From: a virus
Lineage: Duplodnaviria > Heunggongvirae > Uroviricota > Caudoviricetes
Strand: one strand, 5' to 3'
Virus record (IMG/VR): IMGVR_UViG_2859810971_000003
DNA: 14,073 nt
A program made the position numbers and the translations under genes. Of this stretch, positions 8,571 to 11,011 are shown piece after piece. A model generated the notes under the pieces. That model saw only the letters and a list, made by a program, of their open reading frames with translations, did not search any database and had not been told where the DNA came from. Each line of letters starts with the position of its first letter. The first letter of the stretch is position 1.

Positions 8571-9494
8571 TGAGGTGTACTGGCAATAGCGGACACTACC
8601 ATTTGTTCTTTTTTTAAGCAGCCATCTGATGATATTTTTCCCTGAAGGCTGCCGGGGAGATATTCCCCAGACGAGAGTGACGACGCTGACGATTGTAGAA
8701 AATCTCAATGTATTCCCGTATTACTGAGATGGCTTCATCCCGGTTATTAAAACGATAGTGGCTCAGGCTCTCATTTTTCAGCGTTCCCCAGAAGCTTTCC
8801 ATCGGAGCGTTGTCGTAACAGTTACCTTTACGCGACATTGATGTTTTCAGACCAGACTGCTCCTGTATGACCCGGTAATCGTATGCGCAGTACTGTGAAC
8901 CTCGATCAGAGTGGTGGATTAGCCCGGCAGGTGGGCGCTGGCTCCTGAGCGCCATAAACAGGGCTTTACCTGTCAGCTCTTTTGTCATGCGCTCTCCCAT
9001 GGCGTAGCCGACAATTTCGCACGTATAAACATCTTTGATGCCAGCGAGGTACAACCATCCCTCCTGTGTGGCAACATACGTCAGGTCCGCCACCCAGACC
9101 TGATTTGGTGCTGTAGGAGCGAACGTCTGGTTCAGCAGATTTGGCGCAACTGGCAGATTGTGGTTCGGGTTCGTAGTTGCTCTGAACTTGCGTTTCTGCT
9201 TACAGCGTAGCCTTAGCTCCTTACGAAGACGTGCCAGTCGGTCACGACCAACGATGATGCCATTCTCTGCCAGCTCCGTCTGGAGCCGCCGGGTTCCATA
9301 TGTTTCGCGAGTGCGGATATGTGCCACCTTAATCTCCAGTTTTAGCCGCTCATCACTTTGTTTTCTGTCTGAGGGTTCATGCTGTACCCAGTTGTAATAA
9401 CCGCTCCTGGATACACCAAATACCTGACACATCGCTTCAATGGGAAATTGTTGTCGCCATTGTTCGATTAACGCGTATTTTTCAGCGACTCCTG
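8571..9494 (-). mobile_element. IS600 copy 2, inverted relative to copy 1 and truncated within orfA by IS1
   Basis: Terminus TGAGGTGTAC at 8571 is the reverse complement of the copy 1 end. IS600 sequence runs to 9494 (orfA codon region equivalent to about 277 of copy 1), then IS1 begins. Confidence 0.9.
8614..9432 (-). CDS. IS600 transposase OrfB, intact 272-aa frame, but orfA and the frameshift site are missing
   Basis: Full-length DDE transposase frame. The upstream orfA and the A7G slippery site are replaced by IS1. Confidence 0.9.
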   Translation of the reverse strand: MCQVFGVSRSGYYNWVQHEPSDRKQSDERLKLEIKVAHIRTRETYGTRRLQTELAENGIIVGRDRLARLRKELRLRCKQKRKFRATTNPNHNLPVAPNLLNQTFAPTAPNQVWVADLTYVATQEGWLYLAGIKDVYTCEIVGYAMGERMTKELTGKALFMALRSQRPPAGLIHHSDRGSQYCAYDYRVIQEQSGLKTSMSRKGNCYDNAPMESFWGTLKNESLSHYRFNNRDEAISVIREYIEIFYNRQRRHSRLGNISPAAFREKYHQMAA

Positions 9495-9509
9495 GGTAAT
9501 GACTCCAAC

Positions 9510-10013
9510 TTACTGATAGTGTTTTATGTTCAGATAATGCCCGATGACCTTGTCATGCAGCTCCACCGATTTTGAGAACGACAGTGACTTCCGTACCAGC
9601 CTTGCCAGATGTTGTCTCAGATTCAGATTATGTCGCTCAATGCGCTGAGTGTAACGCTTGCTGATAACGTGCAGCTTTCCCTTCAGGCGTGATTCATACA
9701 GCGGACAGCCATCCGTCATCCATACCACGACCTCAAAGGCCGACAGCAGGCTCAGAAGACGCTCCAGTGTGGCCAGAGTGCGTTCACCGAAGACGTGCGC
9801 CACAACCGTCCTCCGTATCCTGTCATACGCGTAAAACAGCCAGCGCTGACGTGATTTAGCACCGACGTAGCCCCAATGTTCGTCCATTTCAGCGCAGACA
9901 ATCACATCACTGCCCGGTTGTATGCGCGAGGTTACCGACTGCGGCCTGAGTTTTTTAAGTGACGTAAAACTGTGTTGAGGCCAACGCCCATAATGCGTGC
10001 ACTGGCACGACAT
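9510..10013 (-). CDS. insB: IS1 InsB
   Basis: 167 aa, ...[39 protein letters not shown]... Confidence 0.95.
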
Positions 10014-10207
10014 CCGACGCCATTCATGGCCATATCAATGATTTTCTGGTGCGTACCGGGCTGAGAGGCGGTGTAAGTGAACTGTAGTTGCCATGTTTTA
10101 CGGCAATGAGAGCAGAGATAGCGCTGATGTCCGGCAGTGCTTTTGCCGTTACGCACCACGCCTTCAGTAGCGGAGCAGGAAGGACATCTGATGGAAATGG
10201 AAGCCAC
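9932..10207 (-). CDS. insA: IS1 InsA
   Basis: 91 aa, [43 protein letters not shown]... Confidence 0.95.
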
Positions 10208-10262
10208 GCAAGCACCTTAAAATCACCATCATACACTAAATCAGTAAGTTGGCAGCATTACC

Positions 10263-11011
10263 CTGGTTGTAGACTTGTCTCAGCATATAAGTTGCTGGAA
10301 TGATTACGGCGGCTGGTACGACACTGATCATATAAACCTGGTACAAGGCTCAGCTTTCGCAGGCTCCCTACAGTCATATAAAGGATCGCTGTACTGGAAT
10401 AATGTGACCTACCCCTTCCCGTTGACGACAAATACCAACGTATTGGATATTGGTGATAAGACACCGATGCCATTACCGTTAAAACTCTATATTACCCCAG
10501 TTGGGGCGGCCGGTGGAGTTGTCATAAAAGCGGGGAAGTCATTGCCCGTATTCATATGTATAAAATTGCAACATTAGGAAGCGGAAATCCGCGTAATTTT
10601 ACGTGGAATATTATTTCAAATAACAGTGTTGTTATGCCAACAGGCGGCTGCACCGTTGATAGTCGTAATGTCACCGTGGATCTCCCGGACTTTCCTGGAA
10701 GCGCAGAAATACCCCTTGGCGTATATTGCTCAAGCGAACAAAAGCTCTCATTTTATCTTTCGGGTGCCACCACTGACAGTAGCCGACAAGTGTTTGCTAA
10801 CACAGCACCTGATGCAACAAAAGCATCGGGAGTGGGTGTCACTCTAATGCGTAATGGAAAAATACTGGCTACGGGAGAAAATGTCTCCCTGGGGACAGTA
10901 AATAAAAGCAAAGTACCTCTGGGTTTAAGCGCAACCTATGGACAAACAGGAAACAAGGTTTCAGCCGGAACCGTCCAGTCAGTCATTGGTGTCACTTTTA
11001 TCTATGAATAA
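10263..11011 (+). pseudogene. ydeQ: FimH-family fimbrial adhesin gene (ydeQ-like), 5'-truncated by IS1 and frameshifted near 10550..10570
   Basis: The frame is open from the IS1 junction: [14 protein letters not shown]... aligns with FimH NLVVDLSTQIFCHND. The C-terminal pilin domain ...VVMPTGGC...[12 protein letters not shown] matches FimH ...VVVPTGGC...VQSIIGVTFVYQ. The two halves are in different frames. Confidence 0.75.

Follow-up and report, generated by a model that had tools for sequence, protein, structure and literature searches.

Loss of about 3.4 kb beside an IS1 element at the ydeQ locus of Shigella flexneri

The window analyzed here, a stretch of 14,073 nucleotides identical to CP026810.1 (Shigella flexneri), contains a complete IS1 without a target duplication, lying between a truncated IS600 and the remainder of ydeQ. 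This element is very probably an old insertion into ydeQ, inherited from an S. flexneri ancestor, in which the IRL/ydeQ junction is original and the IRR flank has been lost, most likely by an adjacent deletion. Approximately 3.4 kb beside the IS1 disappeared in an ancestor of most S. flexneri, and the structure is an ordinary scar of insertion-sequence activity. The features of the window are the following:

1-1197, plus strand: IS600 copy 1, clipped by the start of the window at the orfA ATG, and inverted relative to copy 2
1-303, plus strand: OrfA of IS600 copy 1, read from the translation
1198-8570: Qin-like lambdoid prophage remnant between the two inverted IS600 copies (annotated matches, gene calls, Pfam)
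8312-8570, plus strand: ydfV', the first 259 nt of ydfV, interrupted by IS600
8571-9494, minus strand: what remains of IS600 copy 2, namely 924 of 1264 bp (IRR end through nt 924), 99.6% identical to a full copy
8614-9432, minus strand: orfB of IS600 copy 2, intact
9468-9494, minus strand: final 8 orfA codons and stop of IS600 copy 2
9486-9494: the 9 bp adjoining the IS1 IRR, CGACTCCTG
9495-10262, minus strand: complete IS1, 768 bp (inverted repeats from a repeat search and direct reading)
9495-9517: IS1 IRR, the left end, reading GGTAATGACTCCAACTTACTGAT
9510-10013, minus strand: insB, intact (NCBIfam NF033558, InsB 141.8 bits)
9932-10207, minus strand: insA, intact (NCBIfam NF033558, InsA 89 bits)
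10240-10262: IS1 IRL, the right end, reading ATCAGTAAGTTGGCAGCATTACC
10263-10271: the 9 bp adjoining the IS1 IRL, CTGGTTGTA, one remaining copy of the original target duplication
10263-11011, plus strand: 'ydeQ (FimH-like adhesin gene), codon 56 through the stop
11345-13622, plus strand: ydeP, frameshifted by -1 at both 12876 and 13032
13870-14073, plus strand: safA, in the 67-aa form characteristic of the main S. flexneri lineages

The element at 9495-10262 belongs to the IS1 family by its length of ~768 bp, its imperfect terminal inverted repeats of ~23 bp starting with GGTRATG, and the intact state of both the insA and insB' frames (InsAB' transposase). Its identity to other IS1 copies of S. 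flexneri is 99.3-100%; its base differences at nt 477 and nt 513 are unique among all the copies examined, and its bases at nt 101 and nt 211 are shared with a few of them. An earlier note on this DNA had held that the IS1 is not a simple insertion, and this is borne out by its 9-bp flanks, which match at three of nine positions. No 9-bp duplication and no repeat of 4-14 bp was found across the two flanks of the window IS1, which have a chance 3-bp CTG in common, and no matching direct repeat appeared after realignment. The range proposed for the element at that time, 9433-10275, does hold the IS1, but extends 62 bp into IS600 and 13 bp into ydeQ.

The IS600 element is 1264 bp long, with ends of the TGAGG... 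type, and its orfA and orfB are linked by a programmed frameshift. The stretch at 8571-9494 is recognizable as IS600 (IS3 family) even in its truncated form. It is without the IRL and orfA codons 1-92, and ends exactly after ...CAGCGACTCCTG, where native IS600 goes on as TGCAAAATACGC. The IS1 does abut orfA, as had been proposed, although the break lies between A92 and Q93 (within ...FAQESLKNTR) rather than at the AQES codons, and the window retains QESLKNTR and the stop. The opposite IS1 end likewise falls in the FimH-like adhesin frame, at codon 56 of 304 (K-12 position 1587569), in the N-terminal fifth of the frame rather than in its middle.

The original state of the locus is preserved in three basal, undeleted genomes of S. 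flexneri (loci L014-L016), namely 3a strain 71-2783 (CP024470.1) and two from NCTC, where the gene order is ydfV'-IS600-ydeT'-ydeS-ydeR-IS1-ydeQ5'-IS1-'ydeQ. In all three, the IS1 in ydeQ is a simple insertion flanked on both sides by CTGGTTGTA as a perfect 9-bp duplication, its IRL/ydeQ junction is identical to that of the window, and the chimeric ORF predicted for such an insertion, YdeQ(1-58) plus read-through into the IS1 IRR, is matched exactly. Given this duplication in the basal genomes, the ydeQ junction must be original and the IS600 junction derived, and the missing duplication in the window is secondary, which provides no argument against the identity of the IS1. The loss amounts to 3,377 bp relative to L014, or 5,937 bp relative to L015, and includes the IS600 5' end, ydeT', ydeS, ydeR, a second, inverted IS1, and ydeQ codons 1-55.

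At one end of the window IS1 (IRL/ydeQ), the neighboring sequence is thus still that of the original insertion. In L014 and L015, the IS600 is found 3.4-5.9 kb farther left, and the DNA in between is missing from the main lineages, given that neither Sf301 nor Sf8401 has an orthologue of ydeR, ydeS, or ydeT (PMC1550401 Additional file 2). The proposal that the IS1 marks a deletion of the rest of IS600 and the adjoining DNA therefore stands, as the undeleted relatives retain both, whereas the order proposed for the events, with the IS1 first in IS600 and a deletion then running towards ydeQ, is reversed by the basal genomes. A SNP tree of ydeP-ydeO attaches its outgroups, K-12 and a sonnei-like genome, inside or beside the cluster of the three undeleted genomes, whose position relative to the other S. 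flexneri genomes is thus basal or nearly basal. The ydfV/IS600 junction of these three is 7 bp longer than that of the window lineage, so that on the IS600 side they do not represent its exact structural ancestor. The exact YdeR', YdeS', and YdeT' proteins of the undeleted genomes are found in 15-30 contigs, and the 67-aa SafA in more than 3,000 index blocks.

The comparison with K-12 provides a different impression of the same locus. The two flanks are 58.6 kb apart in K-12, in agreement with the tens of kb given in the earlier note. The prophage side ascends in K-12 coordinates to ~1,646,157, and the yde side descends from 1,587,569, so that no single deletion from a K-12-like order can produce the join, which is of the inversion type relative to K-12. 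Most of this 58-kb interval survives in S. flexneri, as Sf301 and Sf8401 retain b1511-b1543 in inverted order beyond the prophage (PMC1550401 Additional file 2). The genes without orthologues at the locus in these two strains are only ydeR to ydeK (b1503-b1510) and ydfV to ydfX, with a lone b1509 match, SF1157, elsewhere in the genome, and flxA is also absent from both (PMC1550401).

These observations make it highly improbable that the IS1 entered IS600 first and that a deletion of tens of kb from its IRL end then stopped by chance in ydeQ, bringing the prophage and the yde genes together. The differing flanks, the K-12 separation, and the insertion of IS1 at this same IS600 site elsewhere would all be compatible with that history. 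However, the IRL/ydeQ junction is one side of a genuine insertion whose duplication survives complete in the basal relatives, the flanks are oriented as in an inversion, and S. flexneri retains the majority of the genes in the K-12 interval. The prophage, moreover, already adjoins ydeT' in the undeleted genomes, where ydfV' is joined to ydeT' through IS600, so that the adjacency predates the deletion.

The inversion-type join, together with the 7-bp difference at ydfV/IS600, which suggests that this IS600 copy may not be that of the undeleted genomes, might also be accommodated with no deletion at all. In this case, an inversion between an IS1 in ydfV::IS600 and the inverted ydeQ::IS1 would have made both junctions, and the reciprocal junction would have been lost later. 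This is only slightly more credible than the preceding history, since it requires two independent ~58-kb inversions with nearly the same endpoints in sister lineages, and does not account for the absence of ydeR, ydeS, ydeT, and flxA from Sf301 and Sf8401. The reciprocal chimeric ORFs that it predicts are found only in the undeleted genomes and in gcd. A pure inversion had been the first reading, based on K-12 alone, and was dropped because the undeleted relatives show the inversion to be older and bounded by IS600.

The left and right junctions of the IS1 vary among strains. In all of the 10 main-lineage complete S. flexneri genomes sampled, IS600'-IS1 lies directly upstream of ydeQ. The IS1/ydeQ junction is identical to that of the window in seven of them, while in three the IRL side has lost 319 bp more of ydeQ, which brings the IS1 up to window position 10582, and short-read contigs stop at the same point within the IS1 IRL. 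In IS600 numbering from the IRR end, the left junction is at nt 949 in four of the genomes, including M90T (CP037923.1), and at nt 924, as in the window, in six, half of which are also without the 319 bp. These differences from strain to strain point to stepwise deletions next to the IS1. Strain 8401 has the nt 924 junction though nested among nt 949 genomes, which needs a repeated event, gene conversion, or misassembly. The window junction was sought among E. coli complete genomes and plasmids and found in none, and no related genome shows the adjacency without IS1.

Both IS600 endpoints recur independently in other settings, which makes them probable IS1 hot spots. Within gcd of S. flexneri SFJ17B, a different IS600 copy carries a simple IS1 insertion at the same IS600 site (nt 924) and in the same orientation, with the duplication CAGGAGTCG, and the flank CGACTCCTG is the 9-mer duplicated there. 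As half of an insertion duplication, CGACTCCTG is documented only in this gcd IS600 and in none of ~25 loci for the IS600 next to the yde genes, and CTGGTTGTA is documented at the ydeQ locus itself. On S. dysenteriae pINV, a 90%-identical element, IS1SD, forms the nt 949 junction as well, IS600/IS1 junctions at nt 910 and nt 1193 are present in two E. coli genomes, and the IRR faces the 3' part of IS600 in every case. The chimera predicted for a simple IS1 insertion at IS600 nt 941-949 (OrfA...KKA+VMLPTY) was absent from the protein collection. It may tentatively be suggested, at somewhat less than an even chance, that IS600 has nucleotide-precise and orientation-specific IS1 hot spots at nt 924 and nt 949, used independently at this locus, in SFJ17B gcd::IS600, and by IS1SD on pINV. 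If so, the states nt 949, nt 924, and nt 924 with the 319-bp loss would record stepwise deletion by a single IS1 copy, and could offer lineage markers along with a natural data set for the intramolecular target choice of IS1. The recurrent junctions are, in any event, a small but checkable lead on IS1 target choice.

The same deletion and the same history may have been produced by another enzyme, through RecA-dependent crossing-over between two direct IS1 copies, the second in the neighboring IS600 hot spot, with the loss of the DNA between them and the retention of a hybrid IS1. This route is doubtful, although it deserves more weight than the histories set aside above. A simple insertion at the required site and orientation exists in SFJ17B, and an IS1 placed in IS600 as in locus L017 would form a direct repeat with the ydeQ copy. 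The single-base differences among IS1 copies within a genome are mosaic, which fits frequent IS1-IS1 exchange. An IS1 inside IS600 is, however, present at this locus in none of the ~25 related loci, and the 25-bp and 319-bp steps would each need another very close IS1 insertion followed by recombination, making six events rather than three.

The reuse of the site in gcd::IS600::IS1 was considered as a sign of recombination, and was weakened by the nt 949 junction with a different IS1 variant in S. dysenteriae, which indicates that site reuse needs no shared descent. It was weakened further by gcd::IS600 in the undeleted genomes, which is without IS1. Transposase-mediated deletion and recombination between direct IS1 copies would leave an identical end product. 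Across the 30 IS1 copies compared, the mosaic differences suggest gene conversion, and the two candidate parents are identical to each other, so that a comparison based on a hybrid IS1 does not separate the two routes. Insertion sequences without a duplication have been explained by either adjacent deletion or IS-IS recombination, and adjacent deletions are known to grow stepwise (PMC11708052).

The history that best accommodates these data, with the ydeQ insertion preceding the deletion, would have begun with an IS600-bounded inversion of ~58 kb relative to the K-12 order, which would have placed the prophage end (relB-ydfV') beside ydeT'-ydeS-ydeR-ydeQ. An IS1 would then have entered ydeQ at codons 56-58, duplicating CTGGTTGTA. 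A deletion from its IRR end would subsequently have taken ~3.4 kb (ydeQ codons 1-55, the inverted IS1, ydeR, ydeS, ydeT', and the IS600 5' end), ending at an IS1 target hot spot within IS600, and not the tens of kb once supposed. Initially the boundary in IS600 was probably nt 949, the state of M90T, and the removal of 25 bp then brought it to nt 924, the state of the window, with 319 more bp of ydeQ being lost from the IRL side in another clade. We infer this order from the junctions, and the likeliest agent of the deletion is the transposase, acting through intramolecular transposition of the IS1, that is, the classical IS1-promoted adjacent deletion, rather than homologous recombination.

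In an IS1-promoted adjacent deletion, the element is kept, one of its ends is joined to a nearby target, and no duplication is left. The process was reportedly described by Reif and Saedler in 1975. The window presents the same anatomy, with an intact IS1 that has its original flank at one end, no target duplication, and its other end fused to DNA formerly a few kb away in cis, the endpoint lying in AT-rich sequence where ordinary IS1 insertions also occur. There is no structural difference from the classical case, and the locus has seemingly undergone several rounds (3.4 kb, 25 bp, and 319 bp). Replicative deletions by IS1 were described by Turlan and Chandler (1995), as cited in PMC1550401 (reference 20).

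The rearrangements by IS-IS recombination reported in the Sf301, 2457T, and 8401 genome papers (PMC1550401) are similar in having insertion sequences at block borders with unmatched flanks, and the IS600-mediated inversion of the 8401 paper resembles the IS600-bounded prophage segment of the window, which is flipped between strains. They differ in that no relative was found to carry a second IS1 at this locus as a possible recombination partner. In the E. coli long-term evolution experiment, IS150 also underwent insertion and then an adjacent deletion without duplication, which was later extended (PMC11708052), although that element belongs to the IS3 family rather than to IS1, and the steps were seen in real time rather than inferred from natural isolates.

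The scar itself is thus already known biology, and it matters little beyond record-keeping. One of approximately one hundred IS1 copies of S. flexneri helped to remove the cryptic fimbrial operon ydeQRST, in keeping with the known loss of adhesins in Shigella and the decay of its genome through insertion sequences. For annotation, the lack of a target duplication rightly signals a secondary rearrangement, but comparison with K-12 alone gives both the wrong size and the wrong kind of event, and undeleted close relatives are needed.

On the yde side, 'ydeQ carries a -1 frameshift (G5 to G4) at 10531. A lookup of the 524-aa N-terminal YdeP fragment, intended to reach close relatives, found the source assembly as its sole carrier. 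IS600 copy 1 is 99.3% identical to a full IS600 in locus L002, with an NCBIfam IS3 family match, and the prophage segment between the two IS600 copies is flipped in strains 8401 and M90T. On the ydfV' side, identity to K-12 stops at window position 8572, beyond which K-12 goes on as TGTTGCTTTCTCG. The prophage remnant contains holin', an iraM/pmrD-like gene, an IS200, Q, rusA, ydfU, rem, hokD, relE, relB, and ydfV', and its iraM-like protein is very common in E. coli prophages.

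The S. flexneri chromosome CP026810.1 (GCA_002949455.1) is identical to the window at approximately 1,965,393-1,979,465, and the layout of this region is as follows.

Features of the window (window coordinates)
1-1197, plus strand: IS600 copy 1, truncated at the window start
1198-8570: Qin-like lambdoid prophage remnant (holin', iraM-like gene, IS200, Q, rusA, ydfU, rem, hokD, relE, relB, ydfV')
8571-9494, minus strand: IS600 copy 2, 924 of 1264 bp
9495-10262: IS1, complete
10263-11011: ydeQ, codon 56 onward, carrying a -1 frameshift
11345-13622: ydeP, with two -1 frameshifts
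13870-14073: safA

The IS1 is exactly 768 bp long, with canonical ends on both sides. The last bases on its IS600 side are ...CAGCGACTCCTG, after which native IS600 goes on as TGCAAAATACGC, making this boundary unambiguous, and the first bases on the ydeQ side, CTGGTTGTAGACTTG, correspond to K-12 position 1,587,569. The 9-bp flanks (CGACTCCTG vs. CTGGTTGTA) match at three of nine positions, and there is no repeat of 4-14 bp, which confirms the claim of the earlier note that this IS1 lacks a target duplication. The same note had placed the IS600 break in orfA at ...AQES; orfA is indeed broken, but between A92 and Q93, so that the window retains the OrfA residues QESLKNTR*. The ydeQ break, taken to lie in the middle of the adhesin frame, is at codon 56 of 304.

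The ORFs expected from the reciprocal junctions were predicted and looked up by exact sequence, and two were found. One of these, a YdeQ(1-58)-IS1-IRR read-through, is present in CP024470.1 (S. flexneri strain 71-2783, serotype 3a; PMC9455713) and in two NCTC genomes of this species. In all three, the IS1 of the window is found, oriented alike, as a simple ydeQ insertion with CTGGTTGTA on both sides. This duplication-bearing ydeQ::IS1 contradicts the proposal that the IS1 entered IS600 first. Upstream of it come ydeQ codons 1-55, a second IS1 in inverted orientation, and then ydeR', ydeS', and ydeT'; beyond ydeT' is a full IS600, the other end of which stands against ydfV'-relB-relE-hokD. Given that this IS600 joins ydfV' to the yde side in the undeleted genomes, the prophage adjoined the yde fimbrial genes before the event seen in the window, and their adjacency was not produced by the deletion, contrary to what had been supposed. 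In a ydeP-ydeO SNP tree, the outgroups attach within or beside the cluster of the three undeleted genomes, which makes them basal or nearly basal to the remaining S. flexneri genomes.

The ydeQ 5' end of the undeleted genomes is flanked by the two inverted IS1 copies (9029-10942 in loci L014 and L016, 9188-10942 in L015). The 379 bp that separate the two copies are inverted in L014 and L016, with 9-bp overlaps at both ends, and stand in native orientation in L015, which lacks 159 bp beside one IS1; these changes again point to IS1 activity at the locus. A minor Shigella lineage (short-read contigs of approximately 2.5 kb, L054-L059) shows yet another, third arrangement, with a longer ydeT' (approximately 1,560 bp), ydeS', and ydeR', bordered on one side by an IS600 IRR end and on the other by the IS1 IRL at the K-12-equivalent position 9931 of locus L001.

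The involvement of a deletion is borne out by the comparison with the undeleted relatives, as the window lacks IS600 nt 925-1264, ydeT', ydeS', ydeR', the second IS1, and the ydeQ 5' end. The loss amounts to 3,377 bp relative to L014 and 5,937 bp relative to L015, rather than the tens of kilobases envisaged in the earlier note. The two loci are in fact tens of kilobases apart in K-12, as stated there (58.6 kb), where the prophage side of the window ascends from 1,643,255 to approximately 1,646,157 and the yde side descends from 1,587,569 to 1,583,756. The opposite directions, and the position of the retained prophage genes within this 58.6-kb interval, make a single deletion in the K-12 order impossible, and the join relative to K-12 is, on these coordinates, of the inversion type. 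Strains Sf301 and Sf8401 retain b1511-b1543 (lsr, tam, uxaB, mar, dcp, ydfG-ydfJ), in reversed order past the prophage remnant, but have no orthologue of ydeR, ydeS, b1505, b1506, hipA, hipB, ydfV, flxA, ydfW, or ydfX (PMC1550401, Additional file 2). The persistence of b1511-b1543 means that the tens of kilobases between the K-12 loci were not lost. Exact matches to the YdeR', YdeS', and YdeT' proteins encoded by the undeleted genomes are confined to 15-30 contigs, as against over 3,000 index blocks for the window's SafA variant; this rarity and the missing orthologues indicate that the fimbrial genes were truly lost in the main lineages. Overall, the deletion history is very probable.

The second predicted ORF, an IS600 OrfA(...AQES)-IS1-IRL read-through, is present in S. 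flexneri SFJ17B, whose gcd::IS600 harbors an IS1 that matches the window in IS600 nucleotide position and orientation, here with a perfect CAGGAGTCG duplication. In S. dysenteriae virulence plasmids, IS600 nt 949 is joined to IS1SD, which is only approximately 90% identical, and two E. coli genomes have IS600/IS1-type junctions at nt 910 and nt 1193. In every case (nt 910, 924, 949, and 1193), the IRR is toward the IS600 3' part, and nt 924 and nt 949 have each been used at least twice. The gcd::IS600 of the undeleted genomes contains no IS1, which, together with the IS1SD at nt 949, implies that at least some of these junctions are independent. The repeated use of these sites suggests that the AT-rich IS600 nt ~910-950, numbered from the IRR end and represented by 9480-9494 in the window and by the following bases in full copies, is a region favored by IS1, with hot spots at the level of single nucleotides. 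The loci with such junctions (L017, L018, L019, L020, and L027-L031) lie on unrelated replicons.

Three states of the junction were found among 10 complete main-lineage genomes of S. flexneri, window included.

Junction states among main-lineage genomes
IS600 nt 924/IS1 and IS1/ydeQ codon 56: window, L024, L026 (strain 8401)
IS600 nt 924/IS1, with a further 319 bp of ydeQ gone on the IRL side: L022, L023, L025
IS600 nt 949/IS1, with 25 bp more of IS600 retained: L027, L029 (NCTC 9728), L030 (M90T), L031

As lost sequence is not regained without a template, the simplest order would be nt 949, nt 924, and then the extra 319 bp, through successive deletions from the ends of one IS1. Although nested in the nt 949 clade, strain 8401 bears the nt 924 junction, which requires that the same endpoint was reached twice, that gene conversion took place, or that the 2006 genome is misassembled.

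Adjacent deletion and IS-IS recombination are named in the literature as the usual causes of an IS without a duplication, and adjacent deletions are reported to grow stepwise (PMC11708052). Intramolecular IS1 transposition (adjacent deletion) would need one event per step, with the target preferences of ordinary insertion, and is thus consistent with endpoints at hot spots and with the small steps that recur on either side of the element. Alternatively, ydeQ::IS1 may have recombined with a second, direct IS1 inside IS600, which would leave an identical end sequence; however, each step would need an extra insertion, and an IS600::IS1 intermediate at this locus was found in no genome. Within the deletion account, adjacent deletion is therefore somewhat favored, and recombination between IS1 copies is a plausible, if less probable, route. 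The two candidate parent copies are identical and the variable sites of IS1 are mosaic between copies, so the single-base differences in IS1 are uninformative on the mechanism. These sites (nt 101, 211, 554, and 626 in L004 and L014-L032) are common to the copies within a genome, not to orthologues across genomes, a pattern that points to probable gene conversion among IS1 copies. The scar itself, which is conserved in most S. flexneri, published reference genomes included, is a real but ordinary product of IS activity.

At the ydfV/IS600 junction, the window lineage (...GCATGTCAG|IS600, window 8566-8572) has a ydfV 7 bp shorter than that of the undeleted 3a-type genomes (...GCATGTCAGTGTTGCT|IS600, L015 3300-3314). 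A possible explanation is that IS600 inserted once more at a distance of 7 bp and that the tandem pair then collapsed, and the difference leaves a small chance of separate inversions in the two lineages. In E. coli locus L002, IS600 lies a further 122 bp downstream, and the ydfV 3' end seems to attract this element.

The orientation of the 7.4-kb prophage segment (1198-8570) that the inverted IS600 copies enclose varies among S. flexneri genomes; the segment is flipped in 8401, M90T, and L027, and the Sf301 gene order indicates the same; this flip may be the IS600-mediated inversion mentioned in the 8401 genome paper. A stretch of approximately 703 bp (3653-4355) with an IS200-type tnpA (Y1 transposase, 3716-4264) sets the source genome apart from the 13 other S. 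flexneri loci compared, all of which lack it; it has the appearance of an IS200 insertion into the prophage that is private to this strain. Single-base deletions occur in ydeQ at 10531 (G5 to G4), common to the window and S. sonnei-like genomes, and in ydeP at 12876 and 13032; the 524-aa ydeP fragment is found in this assembly only, and the ydeP frameshifts may represent true pseudogenization or consensus errors. Approximately 820 bp past the right end of the window, downstream of ydeO, a further IS1 (L004 14895-15662), also without a target duplication (flanks AGACTTTACGCC and AGAATTGCTAAT), links the yde region to the fixABCX region, found at approximately 0.04 Mb in K-12, and this junction is kept in all the main-lineage genomes examined.
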